DNA from: Vulcanimicrobiota bacterium
GTDB lineage: Bacteria > Vulcanimicrobiota > Vulcanimicrobiia > Vulcanimicrobiales > Vulcanimicrobiaceae
Assembly (NCBI GenBank): GCA_003133025.1
Contig: PKZK01000023.1
Span: 1,879 to 12,871 of the forward strand
DNA: 10,993 bases
Reading direction: 5' to 3'
The notes under the pieces are model-generated. The model was not told the origin of the DNA. It saw only the letters and a program-made list of their open reading frames with translations, and ran no database searches. Shown piece by piece: positions 2,423 through 10,298 of this stretch (positions are counted from its first letter, which is position 1; the number at the start of each line of letters is the position of its first letter). Made by a program: the position numbers and the translations under genes.

Positions 2423-2848
2423 GTGGAAACCACGACCCGTCAAGCGTTTCAAGCCCGTTGCTCTCAGGTGGCCGCGGTCGTCGAACAGACCGGAGCGACG
2501 GTCGCGAAGGCGCCCAAGGATTTTGCGGTCATCGTTTCGCGCGGCGACGCCTCGGTGACGTTCCCGATCGTGAGCGACCAGCGCGACTGGCGCGAAACGA
2601 CGGCGGAAGAAGCGCTGTTTGCGGCGCTCACCGATCTCTTCGCCTGGGCGTCGGCGAAGACCGACGACGCGACGATCACAACCCTCGACGCGACGGAGAA
2701 AACTGAAGTGCCGCTCGTGCGTCGCGATTTGGGAGCTGAGGTCGAGCGCCTCCGTGCGCTCGCTCAGATCGTCGGCGGAATGGAACCGGTTCGGCGAGCG
2801 TGGCAAGCCGCGGGCATCGATGCGGCCGCCGCCGCCGCCATCGAATAG
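2423..2848 (+). CDS. Hypothetical protein, 141 aa
   Basis: GTG start preceded by a strong SD, GAGGAGG (2411-2417). G/C-rich third positions and ordinary protein composition. No family motif recognised. Confidence 0.8.
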   Translation: METTTRQAFQARCSQVAAVVEQTGATVAKAPKDFAVIVSRGDASVTFPIVSDQRDWRETTAEEALFAALTDLFAWASAKTDDATITTLDATEKTEVPLVRRDLGAEVERLRALAQIVGGMEPVRRAWQAAGIDAAAAAAIE

Positions 2849-2861
2849 TCTGCGGGCTTCG

Positions 2862-2981
2862 TTAGCCGCAGGGGATGATGACGCCGCACGGCGGCGGCGG
2901 GAAATCGTTGGGAATGATCGCGAAGTGATGTGCGACTTGGACAAGGTGAATCAAAGCCCAGACGAGGGCGTGCTCTAACAT
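2862..2981 (-). CDS. Unannotated 39-aa peptide MLEHALVWALIHLVQVAHHFAIIPNDFPPPPCGVIIPCG (candidate signalling or precursor peptide)
   Basis: Translated by hand. ATG at 2981-2979, TAA at 2864-2862, SD GGAGG (plus-strand cctcc 2991-2995) 9 nt upstream. It fills the gap between the 2423-2848 gene and the regulator genes without overlap. Hydrophobic His-rich N-half, Pro/Cys-rich C-half. Confidence 0.72.
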   Translation of the reverse strand: MLEHALVWALIHLVQVAHHFAIIPNDFPPPPCGVIIPCG

Positions 2982-2991
2982 TGATGCTGGC

Positions 2992-3018
2992 CTCCGCAGA
3001 AATTGGGTTACTGCGGAG
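2992..3018. repeat. 8-bp perfect inverted repeat overlapping the peptide gene's RBS
   Basis: CTCCGCAG (2992-2999)-N11-CTGCGGAG (3011-3018). On the minus-strand RNA the GGAG of the SD lies in the 3' arm. Confidence 0.75.
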
Positions 3019-3019
3019 C

Positions 3020-3066
3020 ATTATGCAGAATGGAATTAACGAAGCGTGATCAGGAAATCCTGACCA
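3020..3066 (-). promoter_or_regulatory. Putative activator-dependent promoter of the peptide gene: -10 CATAAT plus 20-bp palindromic operator
   Basis: Minus-strand CATAAT is plus-strand attatg at 3020-3025. No TTGACA-like -35 at 17 bp. Palindrome TGATCAGGAAATCCTGACCA at 3047-3066 (core TCAGGA-AA-TCCTGA) is centred at 3056.5, about -43.5 if the hexamer is -12..-7. Confidence 0.55.
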
Positions 3067-3094
3067 CCTTCCCCTTTGTGTCGCTCGAAGGTGG
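3064..3094. repeat. 8-bp inverted repeat after the regulator stop codon (possible terminator/pause hairpin or second operator)
   Basis: CCACCTTC (3064-3071)-N15-GAAGGTGG (3087-3094), starting 15 nt after the TAG of the 3110-4501 gene. No clear U-tract. Confidence 0.55.
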
Positions 3095-3109
3095 ACTAGT
3101 GCTGCGCTG

Positions 3110-4501
3110 CTATTCGGGTCGGAGCAGGCGAGATATTTTTGCGATCGCCTCGCCGCGCGTCTTGACGTCGAGTTTTTCGTACGCGCTCATCAGGCGCCGC
3201 TCGACGGCGTTGCGCGTCACGCCGCGCTCGAGCGCGATCGCGGCATTCGACTTGCCTTGCGCGACCGCGCGCAGAACGTCGACTTCCGTTTGCGTCAAGG
3301 AGAACGGGACGGCAGCCTCGAGCGCGAGGTTGCCCAGTCGCGCGCGTTGCGCGACGATCAAATAGCCGCGCACCTGCGCGATCGACGGGTTCTGCGTGTC
3401 GAAGGCGGAGCCGCGCGCCTCCGATTCCAGCGCCGCGGCCAGCGTGCCCGTCGAGCCCGGCCACTTGCTGCGCACGCCGAGCGCGCGCATGCCGTGATAA
3501 GCGTCGCCTACGACGACCGAAGCCCACGCCGCGAGCACGCCGGCCAGCTTGCGCCGGATCGCTAGGTGCAGCATCTCGTCACGGTTTTGGTGCATGTTGC
3601 TCAGCGCGAGCGCCTGCCGGGCCACGGGGTTGGCCTCGCTCTTGCAGCCGAGTCCGGCGAGCGCGAGCGCGTGGAGCGCCATGACGAAGGCCCGATCGAT
3701 CGGTTGCACCTCTGCGCTCAAGGTCGCTTCGAGGTGAGCGCGCATCGCGTTGAAGTCGCCGCGCTGGCCGAACATCAACGCATCGCCGATCCGGGTCGGC
3801 AGGCGTGCGGGCACGGGCTCCGGCAAGCGGTCGCGCCGAATCAATTCTCGCAGCGATCCCGCGCGGTCCCAATCCGCGAAGACGCAGGCCAGATCGTATT
3901 GAGCGACGAGAAAGCTACGCCGCGTCGTCGTGTCGCCTGAAGAATCGGCCAGACTCGTGGCGAGTTCCGCGTAATAGCGCGCCGCCTGCAGGTCGCCGGT
4001 GAGATGGTAGTACAGGCCGTAGAGCACGCCCGCGGCGCGCGAGCCCAGGCCGCGCATGCCATACCGGTCGCAGAGCGTCAGGGCAGCTAAACTATGCTCT
4101 TCGCATCCGAGCGCGTCGCGAGAGTACGCCGATGCGACGCCGGCGCGTTGGCGCACGACCGCTTGGGTGGGCCCGGGGATCGCCGGGAGCAAGGCGAGCG
4201 CCGCAGCGAGATCGTCCGCGGGCGACTCGCCCGCCATGGCCCGCACGACACCCCGCAACGCGCTCAGGCGCGCCCGGGCATCGGGGTCGGGCACGAGTTC
4301 GCCGATATTCGCGAGCACCTGCGCCGCCCGCTCCGGCTGGGCTACGCTGACGAGTTCGGGTACGAGACGATCGGCCAAGTGCGCGCGTTCGAGCGCGTCG
4401 CGCGAGTTGCGGAAGCGGCGCTCGAGGTCGCGCAACAACTCCTCGCCGTGCAGCCGGCGCTCGGGGAGACTGCTACGAAGGGCGTGGCTCGCGCTGATCA
4501 T
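3110..4501 (-). CDS. LuxR-family HTH transcriptional regulator with large helical (TPR-like) N-terminal domain, paralog 2
   Basis: 463 aa. C-terminal LTQTEVDVLRAVAQGKSNAAIALERGVTRNAVERRLMSAYEKLDVKTRGEAI is a LuxR/GerE HTH. The N-terminal ~400 aa is Ala/Leu-rich and helical, with no Walker A and no recognisable receiver domain. Confidence 0.88.
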   Translation of the reverse strand: MISASHALRSSLPERRLHGEELLRDLERRFRNSRDALERAHLADRLVPELVSVAQPERAAQVLANIGELVPDPDARARLSALRGVVRAMAGESPADDLAAALALLPAIPGPTQAVVRQRAGVASAYSRDALGCEEHSLAALTLCDRYGMRGLGSRAAGVLYGLYYHLTGDLQAARYYAELATSLADSSGDTTTRRSFLVAQYDLACVFADWDRAGSLRELIRRDRLPEPVPARLPTRIGDALMFGQRGDFNAMRAHLEATLSAEVQPIDRAFVMALHALALAGLGCKSEANPVARQALALSNMHQNRDEMLHLAIRRKLAGVLAAWASVVVGDAYHGMRALGVRSKWPGSTGTLAAALESEARGSAFDTQNPSIAQVRGYLIVAQRARLGNLALEAAVPFSLTQTEVDVLRAVAQGKSNAAIALERGVTRNAVERRLMSAYEKLDVKTRGEAIAKISRLLRPE

Positions 4502-4520
4502 CGGTCTCTTATCGTAAATC

Positions 4521-5915
4521 CTAGCGGTAAGAATGGAGGAGTGACGATACTTTGGCGATTGCTTCGCCGCGCGTCTTTACTTCGAGCTTGGCGTAGGCGC
4601 TCATCAAGCGGCGTTCGACGGCGTTCCGGCTCACGCCGCGCTCGCCGGCGATGGCGCTATTCGTTTTCCCTTCGGCGACGCCCCGCAACACGTCGAGTTC
4701 CGTGGTCGTCAGCGCGTAGGGCGTGGCTGCTTCCAGCGCGAGCGCGCTCTGCCGGGCCGTTCGGGCGAGGATGAGATAGCCCCGAACTTGGGTGAGGGAG
4801 CGATTCTGCACATCGACCGACGCGCCTCGTGCCTCAGCGCAGAGTGCCGCGGCGAGCACGCCGGTCGAGCCCGGCCATTTGCCGCGCACGGTCAGCGCGC
4901 GCGAGCCGTGATAGGTGTCGCCCACGATGACCGAGGCCCAGGCTCCGAGCACGCCCGCGAGCCGCCGGCGGATCGTCGAGTGCAAGAGGTCGCGACGGCG
5001 TCCGTGCGCGTTGCTCAACCCCAAGGCACGGCGTGCGGCAGAGCGGCCCTCTACTTTGAGCCCGAGCCCCGCCAGCGCCAGCGCGTGCAAAGCCACGATC
5101 AAGGCCCGGTCCACCGAGTCGGTCTCCGTCGCGAGCGCCGCCTCGACGTGACCCCGCATGGCGTTGAAGTCGCCGCGGCTTCCGAGCATCAAGGCGTCGC
5201 CGACGCGGAGCGGCGTACCGGAGGTGTATGCCTCCGGGCCCCGGTCGCGGCGGAGCAACTCGCGCAGCGAACCCGCCTGGTCCCAGTCGCCGAAAACGCA
5301 CGCGAGGTCGAATTGCGCCGTCAAGCAGGCGCGCCGCAGCGCACCGTCGCTCGCCGCGCCCGCGAGACCGGTGGCGAGTTCGGCGTAGAATCGCGCGGCG
5401 TGCAGATCGCCGGTGAGGTGATAGTGCAGTCCGTAGAGCGACGCCGCCGCGCGCGCGCCGAGCCACGAGAGGCCGTGCCGGTCGCACAGCGCGAGCGAGG
5501 CCAGCGCCTGTTCCTCGGCCGTGCGCGCGTCGCGCGCGTGCAGCGCGGCGACGGCGGCCCGCTGTAGCACGACGGCCGCGGCCGGTCCTCCGAGCGCGGG
5601 CAGCAGGGACAGCGCTTGCTCGACATCGGCCGCATGGGATTCGCCGAGCATCGCGCTGACCACGCCGCGGAGCGCATGTAGCCTGGCTCGGGCCTCGGCG
5701 CTCGCGCCGGTCGTGTCGATCGCCTCCAGCACGAGCGCTGCGCGCTCGGCATCGGAATTTCCGACCAGTTCGGGTACGAGCCGGTCGGCTAGGTCGATGC
5801 GCTGGGCCGGATCGACAGCCGCGCGAAACCGGCGCTCGAGGTCGCGCAGCAATGCGACTCCATCCAAGCGGACTTGGGGAAGCCGGCGTTCGGTATCTGC
5901 ACGCGAGTCGTTCAA
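4521..5915 (-). CDS. LuxR-family HTH transcriptional regulator with large helical (TPR-like) N-terminal domain, paralog 1
   Basis: 464 aa, TTG start. C-terminal LTTTELDVLRGVAEGKTNSAIAGERGVSRNAVERRLMSAYAKLEVKTRGEAI. It aligns to the 3110-4501 protein without gaps from residue 1, which supports both starts. Intergenic gap is 19 bp. Confidence 0.88.
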   Translation of the reverse strand: MNDSRADTERRLPQVRLDGVALLRDLERRFRAAVDPAQRIDLADRLVPELVGNSDAERAALVLEAIDTTGASAEARARLHALRGVVSAMLGESHAADVEQALSLLPALGGPAAAVVLQRAAVAALHARDARTAEEQALASLALCDRHGLSWLGARAAASLYGLHYHLTGDLHAARFYAELATGLAGAASDGALRRACLTAQFDLACVFGDWDQAGSLRELLRRDRGPEAYTSGTPLRVGDALMLGSRGDFNAMRGHVEAALATETDSVDRALIVALHALALAGLGLKVEGRSAARRALGLSNAHGRRRDLLHSTIRRRLAGVLGAWASVIVGDTYHGSRALTVRGKWPGSTGVLAAALCAEARGASVDVQNRSLTQVRGYLILARTARQSALALEAATPYALTTTELDVLRGVAEGKTNSAIAGERGVSRNAVERRLMSAYAKLEVKTRGEAIAKVSSLLHSYR

Positions 5916-6073: not shown

Positions 6074-8578
6074 TCACACCTCGACGAGTTGTTCGATGTG
6101 TCCGGCGACCTCGCCGATCAGGCGGTCCGCCTCGTCGCCCGTCGTACCCTCTGCGTACACGTTGAGGATCGGGTCCGATGCATCGGGCAGCACCAGAAAC
6201 CACTCGTCGCCGTTGAGCGCGACGCGCACGCCGTCGAAGAGTTCCATCTCGCGGCCTTGATTTTCGACCACGATGGTGCGCATGATCTCGCCCTTGCGCT
6301 CCCACGGACAACTGATCTTCCGGTGACGCAGAAACCAGTGCGGCAACAGGTCGTTGAGTTCGTGCAACTTGCAGCCCTCGAGCGCCAGCAATTCCATCAC
6401 CTTGACGATCGCGTAGAGCGCGTCGAAGGCGGGCTGGAACTCGGGGAAGACGGGCTCCTGGTTGACGCCGCTGCCGTAATCGAGGGTCTCGCGTTGCGCG
6501 TCGGCCAGCGCCATCATCGAGCGTCTGTCGCTGCGCGTGCGCGTCATCGTTGCGCCGAGCGAGCCCGCGAGACGTTCGATGGCGGACGGCGTCGTGACCG
6601 GCACGGCGAGGCGTGCGTTGGCCTTGCGCCTGCACACCATCAGGGTCACGAGCGCCAAGAGCCGGTTTCCCGCGATCACCCGTCCGAGATCGTCGACGAG
6701 CGCAAACGACTCGCCGTCGTGGTCGACGAGCACGCCGAGATCCGCGCCGAGGGTCATGGTGATCGTGCGTAACTGCTCGATGTAGCGCTCGCGGTCGACG
6801 CGGAACGTGCGCGATTTGCTCTCGTCGTAATACGCGTCGAGCGCGATGATGTCGACGCCCAAATTGGAGAGGATGCGCGGCAGCACGATCGAGGCGTTGC
6901 CGTAGCCGTAGTCGACGACCACTTTGAAGCCGGCCTTGGGCAGCGCGCGCGGTTTGAGCGCGGTCAGAAACTCGCCCGTGTAGATTTCGAGCGAACGTGC
7001 CGGAAAGGAGAGCAGGCCCACTTCGTCCATGCCGGTGCGCCGGAAATCCTCGCGGAAGAACAGGTTCTCGATCTTGCGTTCGGTCGACTTGTCGACGTTG
7101 ATGCCGCCCGCGTCGAAGAGTTCGATGAGCAACGAGTTGGGCTCTTGCGGATCGATGCGCGTGTGCACCCCGCCGTCGCCGCCGATGCGCGTCGAATAGC
7201 GCGCGAGCGGCAGCGGGATCGAGCGCAGATCCTGGACGTTGACGCCCACCGAGAGTAAGCCGGAGATGATGCAGCGGTTCATGATGCGCGCGGCGGGATG
7301 GGCGTCGCGGCTGGTCATGATCGTTTGTCCGGGTTTGACGTGCGAGCCGAACGCCTGCCCGAGCTTCATCGCGAACTCGGGCGTGATCTCGACGTTGGCA
7401 AGACCCGTGACCCCGACGCCGCCGAAGAGCGAGCCCGGCCACTTGATGCCGTAGATCAGCGACATCGAAACGATCGAGCCCGAGCTGACCGTCTTTTCGG
7501 GCCAGAGCTTGATATTGGGACGGATCACGGCGTTGCTGCCCAGCGTGCAGTTGCTGCCGACGACCGAACCTTCGCCGATCGTGACGTGGTCCTTGACGAT
7601 GTTGCGGTCGGCCAGCGTGCACTCGGTGAGCGCGCTGAATTCGCCGAAGTAGCCGTCTTCCCAGGCGATCGTGCGGTGCAGTTTGGCATGCTTGGCCACG
7701 ATGCCCGCGTTGCCGATGACGGTCTCCGCGCCGACGATCGCGCCCGCTTCGACCGTGACGTTCTTGCCGAGCACGACCGGCCCGAGGATGTGCGCGCCGG
7801 GATCGATGCGGCAGCCCTCGCCCGTCCAGACGCCGGGGCTGGTCTGCGTTCCCGGAATTTCGACGCGCACGCGGCCGTTGAGCGCATCGTAGTTTGCTTG
7901 TTGATACTGCTGCAGGTTGCCGATGTCGGTCCAGTAGTCGTCGGTGACGAAGCCTTGCACGAGCTTGCCGTCGTGGAGCAGCCGCGGGAAAATGTCGCGC
8001 GAGAAGTCGTAGCTCTTGCCGCGTTCCATGTATGCGAAGACGGCCGGATCGATGACGTAGATGCCGGTGTTGATCGTGTCGGAGAAGATCTCGCCCCACG
8101 ACGGCTTTTCGAGGAAGCGCGTGATCCGCCGGCTGTCGTCGGTGATCACCACGCCGAACTCGAGCGGGTTGCTCACGCGCTGCAACGCGATCGTGGCTTG
8201 GGCTCCCGTCCGTGCGTGCTCCGCCAGGAATGCGGTGAGATCGAGATCGGTCAGCGCGTCGCCCGAGATGATCAGGAACGGCTCGTCCTTGAGCGCCTCC
8301 TCGGCGAGCTTCACCGCCCCGGCCGTACCCAGCGGCGTATCTTCGACGACGTAGCTCATCGAGACGCCGAACGCGCTGCCGTCGCCGAAGTAGCTTTCGA
8401 TTTCGTCGGCGAGGTAGTGCAGCGTCGCCACGATTTCCACGACGCCGTGCGTGCGCAGCAGGTCGACGATGTGCTCCATCACCGGCTTGTTGACGACGGG
8501 CGCCAGCGGTTTGGGCCTGCGCGACGTAAGCGGACGCAGCCGCGAGCCCTCGCCGCCGGCCATCACAACCGCTTTCAT
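6074..8578 (-). CDS. Mannose-1-phosphate guanylyltransferase-like nucleotidyltransferase + hexapeptide (LbH) domain + phosphoglucomutase/phosphomannomutase-like domain fusion
   Basis: 834 aa. Nucleotidyltransferase motifs [54 protein letters not shown]. Hexapeptide repeats at about aa 250-370. PGM/PMM-like region from [12 protein letters not shown] onward. SD GGAGG at 8591-8587. Confidence 0.9.
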
Positions 8579-8582
8579 CGAA

Positions 8583-10298
8583 TCAACCTCCCCGGACTCG
8601 CGCCCGGACCCCGGCGGCCAATCGTGCGATGCTCTCGTCGCAGGCGATGTCGTCGAGGCGAATGCGAGCCTTTCTTCGCCAATTCGGATATTCGCCGTAG
8701 GTTCCCGGCAGATTCACTTGGTCGATTTCGCCCAGCGCGTCGTCGAGTTGCACGAGCACGATTCGGGCCGGGCTTTGCGCCAGAAAGCGATAGGCCGCGG
8801 CGACCAGCGGAGCGTAGGCGCCGGCGTCCCGTTCGCCCGCGTCGATGCGCCCGTGCAGCGTCTCGACCTCATCGTGGGAGAGTTCCCCGGCGGCCTGCAC
8901 GGCTTCGAGCAAGCGCGTCGCGTCGAGCCGCCGGAGCGCGCGCGCTGCAGCGAGCGCGGCCGCATCGAGTTCGCCGAAGGCGGCGCGCACGTCGAGATCG
9001 CGCCCGAGCACCCAGCCGGGCAGCGTGGGCAGGTCGTGCGTGGTGGCCGTGGCGAGAGCGAGTTTCGGATACGCCGGCGGCGCGTGAAAATTGCCGCCGC
9101 CGTCGCGTTCGAAGAGCAGGAGACGGTACGAGAGAATCGCGGCGCTTTCCATCCGTTCGCGAAAACCGTCGGGCACCGTGCCCAGATCCTCGCCCACGAT
9201 CACGCAACGGGCCGCGTTGCTGGCTTCGGCCGTGAGCCCGAGCAGCAACTCGAACGGATATGCCACATACTCGCCGTGAGCCGCGTCGCTGCCCAGCGGG
9301 ATTTGGAAGAGGCGCAGCAACGACATCACATGGTCGATGCGTAACGCCGCGGCAAAGCGCGTGGCGTCGTGCAGCAGCGCGGCGAAGGTGCGACCGCCGC
9401 CGGCTTCGAGTGCGACCGGATCGAAGGGTGCGAGTCCCCAATTCTGGCCGAGCGGGCCGAGCGGGTCGGGCGGCGCTCCGACCGTGCGGTCGAGCAGATA
9501 TGCTTCCCGGTCGCTCCATACGTCGGCGCTGTTTGCGTCGACGCCGACCGCCATGTCGAGGTAGAGGCCGGCGCTCTGCGCATCGGCGGCAACCGCGGCG
9601 AGTTGCTCGTGCGCGACGAATTGCAGGTATTTATAGAAGTCGATCCGCGCGCGCTCGCGCCGCGCAAAGCGCGAGACCGCGGATCCGCGCGGGTCGCGAT
9701 AGCTTTGGGGCCAAGTGAGCCAGCCGCGGGTGCGGCCGCCGTCGCGCGCGTAGCGCTCGTTGAGCGCTTCGTAGCGCGCGAATCGCTCGAGCGCCGGCCC
9801 GGCCGCGGCGCAGAAGGCGGCGAATTCGCGTCGGCGTTCCCCGTTCGCGCGGGCCTCGAAGGCCGCGTACAACGCCTCCAAGGCGAGCCGCTTGCAGCGA
9901 CCGACGAGCGCGTACTCGACGCGTGGTGAAGCGCGCGCGCGTTCGAGGTCGTCCGTCAAGGTCGCGAGCAACCCTGCGAGCGACGGCGGGTCGAGCGCGA
10001 ACTCGGGCACGGCCTCGACGTCGATATAGAACGGGTTGAGGAAGCGGCGGCTCGTCGGCGAGTAGGGACTCGCCGCCTCGGGATCGAGCCAGTGTAGCGC
10101 ATGCAGCGGGTTGATGCCCACCAGATCCGCACCCAGATGCTTGGCCAGGCGCGCGAAGTCGCGCAGGTCGGTGAAGTCGCCCATGCCCCAGTTGCGCTCC
10201 GAGCGCAGCGCGTACAGATGCGCCGCGAAGCCCCAGGCGCGTCCCGAGCCCTCCCAGTCGGGCGGAAGGAAGCAGCGCGGGCCGAGGCCGTCGCTCAC
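8583..10298 (-). CDS. malQ: 4-alpha-glucanotransferase (amylomaltase, GH77), about 571 aa
   Basis: Motifs [83 protein letters not shown]. Likely start GTG 10298, overlapping the glgX stop (GTGA). Confidence 0.95.

Follow-up and report, generated by a model that had tools for sequence, protein, structure and literature searches.

We analysed a 10,993-nt stretch of a Vulcanimicrobiota contig (the window; genome G000, assembly 80% complete), in which two regulator genes, A and B, are followed on the same strand by a small gene encoding a hydrophobic peptide. An earlier reading of this DNA (the original prediction) had described a peptide-signalling module composed of two paralogous helical-domain/LuxR-type helix-turn-helix (HTH) genes, a 128-bp intergenic region with three inverted repeats and a co-oriented 39-aa open reading frame (ORF) with a perfect Shine-Dalgarno (SD) sequence. 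The two regulators proved to be 65% identical over 449 aa, to share a Pfam GerE match and to have a predicted helical sensor, and the 128-bp gap between regulator A and the peptide gene, with the three repeats read from its sequence, was located at 2982-3109. The co-oriented small ORF was likewise found, though its SD is not perfect, GGAGG holding five of the six letters of AGGAGG. We refer to a TPR-LuxR gene, a palindromic site and a hydrophobic peptide gene in this arrangement as the cassette (TPR, tetratricopeptide repeat).

4521-5915, minus strand: regulator B, 464 aa, TTG start uncertain
3110-4501, minus strand: regulator A, 463 aa, likely the cognate receptor
~3143-3301, minus strand: LuxR HTH of regulator A (Pfam GerE), residues 401-453
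3064-3071/3087-3094: inverted repeat 1 of the gap
3046-3055/3058-3067: inverted repeat 2 of the gap
2992-3002/3008-3018: inverted repeat 3 of the gap
2991-2995, minus strand: SD GGAGG, a good match, 9 nt from the ATG of the peptide gene
2862-2981, minus strand: peptide gene, 39 aa

The 39-aa product, predicted to be a pro-peptide, has a hydrophobic N-terminal half spaced by His residues, after which come a run of Pro and, C-terminally, a C-x5-C loop. A fixed peptide-calling rule (an SD of at least 4 nt, 14-60 aa, a hydrophobic window, within 330 nt) was applied to de-duplicated regulator loci and called a peptide in 23 of the 26 close-clade rows, in 33 of 47 other relatives lacking the STAND ATPase (see below) and in 15 of 23 rows of the STAND-type group (two partial), as well as in three of 23 other LuxR-HTH rows (five of the 23 being fragments or opposite-strand frames). 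The close-clade misses were two paralogue-B rows and locus L049, in which the peptide frame runs on into the next gene. As a control for chance, the same rule was passed by 57 of 2136 long ORFs of G000, and the terminal Cys loop occurred in one of the 2136, which was this locus itself. No p-value is given, since the loci are best profile hits rather than a random sample and kin are not independent. These data demonstrate that the small peptide gene beside the regulators is real and recurs far beyond chance, as had been anticipated for homologous regulators.

Among the 22 distinct close-clade peptides, 21 end in C-x5-7-C, the exception coming from a frameshifted record, and the two Cys are the sole invariant columns of the 21 aligned peptides, with a variable loop between them. 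Hydrophobic peptides with a Pro/Cys tail, to which attention had been drawn, do recur; the conserved feature in the close clade is the two-Cys loop and not the Pro run. In the wider family, Pro lies within the last 8 residues of 60 of 70 distinct peptides. Each peptide contains 2-5 His, and paralogous cassettes within one genome carry differing tails. The SD upstream of the peptide is kept in homologues and, together with start, frame, stop and the two Cys, is conserved across receptors down to ~43% identity. In the window sub-clade, start, frame and stop are kept in all six peptide genes, and length changes are multiples of three. A STAND-type row (L009, from the unpublished genome G020) is included in the 15 of 23, in the 70 peptides and in the tree described below, and unpublished genomes (G020, G224, G255, G036 or G244) are among the genome tallies; no conclusion rests on them.

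Contigs from RNA libraries cover the peptide ORF in three of four runs from three studies (run X2 has no coverage), and their coverage of the regulators is patchy. We consider this a weak hint, since the contigs are unstranded, shallow, chosen for holding the stretch and possibly DNA, and one of them reaches 22 nt past the predicted start. Two variations on the arrangement were also observed: at L096, two near-identical peptide ORFs stand in tandem behind one receptor, and in a peptide-less receptor clade (L109, L111, L112) a small opposite-strand HTH-only ORF directly follows the receptor's stop.

Fold and ancestry of the regulators

The GerE/LuxR HTH (residues 401-454, E 2e-8) was the sole Pfam match above cut-off in the regulators. 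Neither Pfam nor the structural model revealed an N-terminal HTH in them or a STAND ATPase in either of the two, no autoinducer-binding domain was among their Pfam matches, the N-terminal domain being all-helical in the model, and NCBIfam assigned neither the regulators nor the peptide to a family above cut-off. AlphaFold2, given a 100-row alignment, modelled regulator A as an all-helical repeat spanning ~residues 19-397 followed by the HTH, with a mean predicted local distance difference test (pLDDT) score of 93.3. Foldseek returned five matches at E <=0.001, including MalT domain III and NprR with its peptide, and VIA, whose list consists of re-ranked Foldseek hits, gave Z-scores of 20.2 for LGN, 19.4 for phage Rap, 19.1 for NprR and 17.0 for MalT domain III, with root-mean-square deviations of 4.8-5.4 A across 303-332 superposed residues. 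By this model the sensor is a TPR solenoid, in agreement with the TPR-like fold that the original prediction had named beforehand as a check. Of the three outcomes named there as refuting the module, two were looked for, namely homologues without peptide ORFs beside them and a sensor of another fold, and neither refuted it. At the sequence level, TPR_12 exceeded the cut-off in one of 39 relatives scanned, with sub-threshold TPR matches in many others, and a sequence search of the PDB found HTH matches, plus one weak match at residues 132-192, and no RRNPP structure.

The regulator profile retrieved 59 representatives at E <=1e-30, and the search further showed that proteins of 820-880 aa align to the regulators across their C-terminal TPR-HTH half. 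Three of these longer relatives were scanned and match MalT PRK04841 (E ~1e-44), and most carry AAA hits; an Atlas feature search, taken as a lead only, pointed to TPR_MalT clusters with scores of ~0.9. On account of the C-terminal-half alignment and the MalT matches, the best reading of the window regulators is that they are MalT-like STAND family members without the ATPase, a wording that implies no direction of change between ATPase-less and ATPase-bearing forms. The parentage of the receptor thus differs from the one suggested earlier, tracing by sequence to MalT/STAND-type regulators and not to RRNPP or acyl-homoserine lactone (AHL)-LuxR receptors.

The tandem arrangement of the regulators, previously taken as part of the system, had to be set aside, as L032 and L034 carry a single regulator at the equivalent chromosomal place. 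The second copy was found only in the window and in the near-identical loci L031 and L033, which belong to this species, and regulator B lacks a peptide gene, A being the next gene after it. B and A are 63% identical in the sensor and 77% in the HTH; the corresponding values are 76% and 93% for A against the L032 regulator, and 64% and 77% for B against it. On a tree of 88 rows built by a quick method, B branches off outside the group that A forms with its orthologues (SH-aLRT 92, moderate). Since B keeps the recognition helix, it would bind A's site with a changed sensor, and it is likely a second-specificity or modulating receptor acting on that site.

Predicted operator, promoter and outputs

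Inspection of the gap yielded the following elements, which are predictions:

3050-3063, no strand assigned: palindrome TCAGGA-N2-TCCTGA, predicted operator, centred at ~-43.5 from the predicted peptide transcript start (near 3013)
3020-3025, minus strand: predicted -10 hexamer CATAAT, 24 nt past the palindrome
3064-3094, minus strand: hairpin-forming inverted repeat after the regulator A stop, with no U-tract, not scored as a terminator
2992-3018, minus strand: inverted repeat with the SD in its 3' arm, which would mask the ribosome site in read-through RNA

The palindrome, in the form TCAG(G/T)A-N2-TCCT(G/T)A, was present in 26 of 30 close-homologue rows (23 distinct), and in all 26 a -10-like hexamer stands 23 or 24 nt after it; both patterns were composed after viewing the loci. 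The four rows without it are three of paralogue B and L040, the only member with a differing recognition helix. Because the spacing is fixed at 23-24 nt, the palindrome would be centred at about -42.5 to -43.5, where activators bind, and this conserved, operator-like element before the peptide gene supports the module as originally proposed. An exact 18-mer of the site was found in eight of 207 family genomes (reversed control, 0), namely G000, six of the seven genomes of one genus, and G088, where it is intragenic; the receptor was seen in four of those six, the other two (G344 and G355) not having been read. Taken together, these patterns strongly suggest that the palindrome is the binding site of the regulator, which would activate from this position at about -43. 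Recognition helices differ in other clades; palindromes of a different sequence recur in the STAND clade and in one of the ATPase-less clades, at 73-82 nt from the ATG of the peptide gene, and several clades have no clear one. No promoter or terminator emerged from a generic sigma-70 scan of the locus, and we infer the peptide promoter from conservation only.

The RNA fold of the gap is, on its own, only moderately unusual (z -2.2; six of 200 shuffles fold equally well). When folded from the predicted start, the SD was less paired in 19 of 22 loci, its mean unpaired value rising from 0.14 to 0.32. As RNAalifold recovered no consensus structure for the SD-masking stem, we offer the stem as a suggestion and a possible refinement, whereby it may mask the SD in read-through RNA and less so in RNA from the peptide promoter.

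Outside the window sub-clade, the peptide gene heads an operon. In the close clade an unnamed 103-aa gene lies behind it in 19 of 25 loci, followed by HPt and REC-HD genes; in other clades an unnamed gene of 55-85 aa or 120 aa takes this place, and in the STAND clade a gene for an HD_5 protein, which we label HD-GYP-like from its Pfam match. In the window sub-clade (six loci), the peptide gene stands alone, ahead of a convergent unrelated gene. Furthermore, a second palindrome was found in G013 and G183 ahead of a cheW-cheR-cheW-MCP-cheA-cheB-hybrid kinase-amine oxidase-regulator run, with equal spacing to a -10-like element, and the run leads co-directionally to the regulator gene (by Pfam for G013). 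G206 has neither the che run nor a site at that locus, whereas in G344 two sites are likewise spaced 12 kb apart. Since HD-GYP and phosphorelay genes of relatives would be transcribed from the promoter of the peptide gene, the output is likely a cyclic-di-GMP-type lifestyle switch.

The unnamed genes behind the peptides form small families. The 103-aa gene (L037:3890-4198 and 18 other loci) directly follows the two-Cys peptide, has no Pfam match and is fused to the peptide frame in L049, and two further families stand behind peptides in L060-L107, one of 55-85 aa and HTH-like, the other of ~120 aa and helical. As for additional sites, of the one-mismatch sites in G206 and G183 and the exact G088 site, three were rejected, as they lie inside one membrane-protein gene family, and three in G206 (C6, C16) are unexplained. 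At L144 (G206:C16:31530 and 32552), two near-perfect palindromes separated by ~1 kb surround a pair of small, unnamed paralogues (~120 aa), possibly as extra regulon members.

The cassette belongs to a family spread across Vulcanimicrobiota, whose regulators have homologues titled Vulcanimicrobiaceae or Eremiobacteraeota, and one genus carries at least five cassettes per genome. In G000 itself, a MalT-like STAND-TPR-LuxR gene on C10 (672-5061) is followed by a 66-aa lipoprotein-like ORF (start 3703), in which a 9-residue unit is repeated twice, and then by an HD-GYP-like gene; this is likely a second cassette of the family. On C229 (minus strand, offsets 7296-9313), a lipoprotein-like precursor, in which an 8-residue Gly/Pro unit occurs three times, lies directly upstream of a helical LuxR-HTH regulator with a 531-aa frame, which the regulator profile matches significantly in the HTH only.

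A proposed peptide-signalling loop and its alternatives

We consider it fairly probable that the cassette is an RRNPP-like peptide signalling system with positive feedback. The peptide would be exported and trimmed; its tail, likely disulfide-closed, would be taken up again and occupy the TPR groove of the regulator, which would in turn switch on the peptide promoter by way of the palindrome. In A, R119, Y161, Y165, Q201 and R339 are conserved and are candidate contact residues of the groove. This proposal starts from the modelled fold, the recurrent pairing of the two genes, the two Cys conserved in the tail and a palindrome of fixed spacing that co-occurs with one recognition helix. From these we infer, with moderate confidence, that the tail is the regulator's ligand; that the peptide leaves the cell is held with moderate to weak confidence, and that it switches the regulator on and not off with weak confidence. 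Relatives with export-like features include peptides with long Ser/Thr/Pro linkers before the tail and the lipoprotein-like repeat precursors of C10 and C229, and generic machinery is present in G000 in the form of 14 family-5 solute-binding proteins above cut-off and M50 proteases.

Several observations weigh against such a loop. Although a hydrophobic core is present, K/R occurs within the first 6 residues in only three of the 70 distinct peptides, so that they lack the basic n-region of Sec signals, and in 14 of the 21 with two Cys the hydrophobic stretch is followed by a basic residue, which would favour an orientation with the tail inside. Once in the cytoplasm, a disulfide-closed ring would probably undergo reduction, and MalT's own TPR sensor binds a sugar inducer. 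The structural scores do not tell RRNPP from generic TPR proteins, LGN ranking first, and physical linkage would by itself lead one to expect the co-variation of peptide and receptor on the tree. Codon changes in five sub-clade peptide genes (48 synonymous, 78 non-synonymous) give no clean purifying signal, and some receptor clades are peptide-less by the rule (14 of 47 and eight of 23 misses). Finally, the locus has no local output gene, and in G000 neither che genes (bar one receiver-domain hit) nor the 103-aa gene had a match. In a position weight matrix scan, G000 showed a single strong site (34 bits); the second-ranking independent one (16.5 bits, C49) was rejected, as it overlaps an open frame. 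With only one strong site and no che or 103-aa matches, the loop has no visible output in G000, where the output has either been lost, escaped assembly or come under a degenerate site.

The peptide may instead be an output only, the regulator sensing another small molecule and the operon's first gene encoding a small membrane, metal-binding or secreted peptide with no feedback. We regard this as unlikely. The STAND/MalT ancestry of the regulator, the place of the peptide as first gene of target operons and the peptide-less receptor clades all speak for it, but the micro-peptide stays first across clades whose downstream genes are unrelated (four gene families), and it is kept in the six loci of the window sub-clade, where every other target is gone. 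Moreover, the second palindrome-led operon begins with cheW and has no peptide, which suggests that the peptide goes with the receptor and not with the promoter type.

It also appears improbable that the peptide is a ligand that stays inside the cell, either in the inner membrane with its N-terminus out and C-terminus in or in the cytoplasm, where the tail would sequester or tune the regulator and the feedback would serve as a timer, a bistable switch, or a redox- or metal-gated switch acting through the Cys pair and the His residues. The absence of a basic n-region in 67 of 70 peptides fits this account, as do the basic residue behind the hydrophobic stretch in most two-Cys peptides, the 2-5 His of each peptide, the L049 frame that reads through into the next gene, and the sequestration of MalT by partner proteins (PMC10427625). 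On the other hand, the window sub-clade has no basic residue past the hydrophobic stretch, the long linkers and lipoprotein-like signals with repeated units in relatives fit export, and a variable loop between fixed Cys fits signal dialects better than a cell-private brake. That the micro-ORF is a chance frame in a conserved promoter or terminator region, as the lack of a family match for the peptide and of proteomic evidence might allow, is effectively refuted by the SD, start, frame, stop and two Cys kept down to ~43% receptor identity and by the single occurrence of such a tail among the control ORFs.

The signalling loop has its closest functional parallel in the RRNPP(A) systems (Rap-Phr, NprR-NprX, PlcR-PapR, Rgg-SHP, ComR-ComS, AimR-AimP), which likewise pair an adjacent small hydrophobic pro-peptide gene with a cytoplasmic TPR receptor. 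NprR and Rap resemble the window sensor in fold (Z 19.1 and 19.4), and the receptor-peptide-output order recalls the gene order aimR-aimP-aimX of AimR-AimP. Published RRNPP(A) criteria include a 10-100 aa pro-peptide, a 250-500 aa TPR receptor and direct gene adjacency, and the cassette agrees with three of the five (a 39-aa peptide, a 463-aa TPR receptor and genes 128 bp apart); a further criterion is export of the pro-peptide by Sec or, when SHP-like, by PptAB (PMC10075063). RRNPPA receptors optionally carry an N-terminal HTH (PMC12700828), and peptide signalling through intracellular receptors has been described in Bacillota and in phages of these bacteria (PMC10075063, PMC12700828). By contrast, the LuxR HTH of the window regulators is C-terminal, the host belongs to Vulcanimicrobiota and has Omp85, the peptides are without a basic n-region and end in a two-Cys loop, and the regulators' sequence kin are MalT-like STANDs, their structure being equally close to LGN, Rap and MalT. 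Since it departs from the N-terminal HTH architecture, we do not place the cassette in RRNPP.

The MalT/LAL STAND activators (ATPase-TPR-LuxR HTH) share with the window regulators a TPR sensor followed by a C-terminal LuxR HTH. However, the N-terminal STAND ATPase is present in the 820-880 aa relatives and not in the window regulators, and the ligand of MalT is a sugar, whereas that proposed for the cassette is a peptide encoded by the next gene; no adjacent peptide gene for MalT was found in the literature covered. LuxI/LuxR systems, which respond to AHL, have a C-terminal LuxR HTH and a palindrome near -43, the position of the lux box, before the presumed signal gene, as in the cassette, but the latter has neither autoinducer-binding domain nor synthase, and its sensor is modelled as a TPR solenoid. 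Mycobacterial TPR-LuxR proteins have the same TPR and LuxR HTH architecture, and their authors speculate that internalised peptides might bind, though the accessible text names neither a cognate peptide gene nor an operator or a family (bioRxiv 10.1101/2024.03.06.583649). A published description of the cassette was not found in the literature covered, which takes in few subscription journals and no supplementary tables, and here the original prediction, which had not recognised a described system, still stands. The cassette is real, conserved and unnamed.

The host is likely diderm, since G000 has an Omp85 gene; LpxC was not found in this 80% complete genome, and Vulcanimicrobiota, a group that has received little study, are as a whole likely diderm, with an outer membrane. 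We put forward tentatively, as a possibility somewhat short of even, that Vulcanimicrobiota run a large, independently built peptide communication system in a diderm cell, in which MalT-like STAND receptors, some with the ATPase and some that have lost it, would read peptides encoded by the cell itself, with many dialects (up to five or more cassettes per genome), HD-GYP and chemosensory outputs, and a disulfide ring as this clade's signal to a cytoplasmic receptor. If true, a phylum that is mostly uncultured and likely diderm would hold a parallel system assembled from components of MalT/STAND type, the design having arisen twice; alternatively, the cassette would supply the RRNPPA outgroup that has been called missing (PMC12700828). 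Ligands could then be named for many orphan regulators of the TPR-LuxR and STAND types as well. As the cassette brings a predicted receptor, ligand, operator and promoter, it is directly testable in a laboratory host, and its many peptide dialects are candidate orthogonal switches.

Neighbouring genes

The genes around the cassette are housekeeping by their Pfam matches (glycosyltransferase, enoyl-CoA hydratase, nucleotidyltransferase/phosphomannomutase, 4-alpha-glucanotransferase). A convergent 141-aa gene (2423-2848, plus strand), with no Pfam or NCBIfam match, is preceded by a GC-rich palindromic stretch at ~2391-2406 and often adjoins an enoyl-CoA hydratase or glycosyltransferase gene. It was considered as a part of the system and rejected, being present in 13 of 61 family genomes and having no adjoining regulator in five of five loci, within the stretches read. 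At 6074-8578 (minus strand) lies a fused nucleotidyltransferase-hexapeptide-phosphomannomutase gene, which stands beside glucanotransferase and debranching-enzyme-like genes and appears ordinary.

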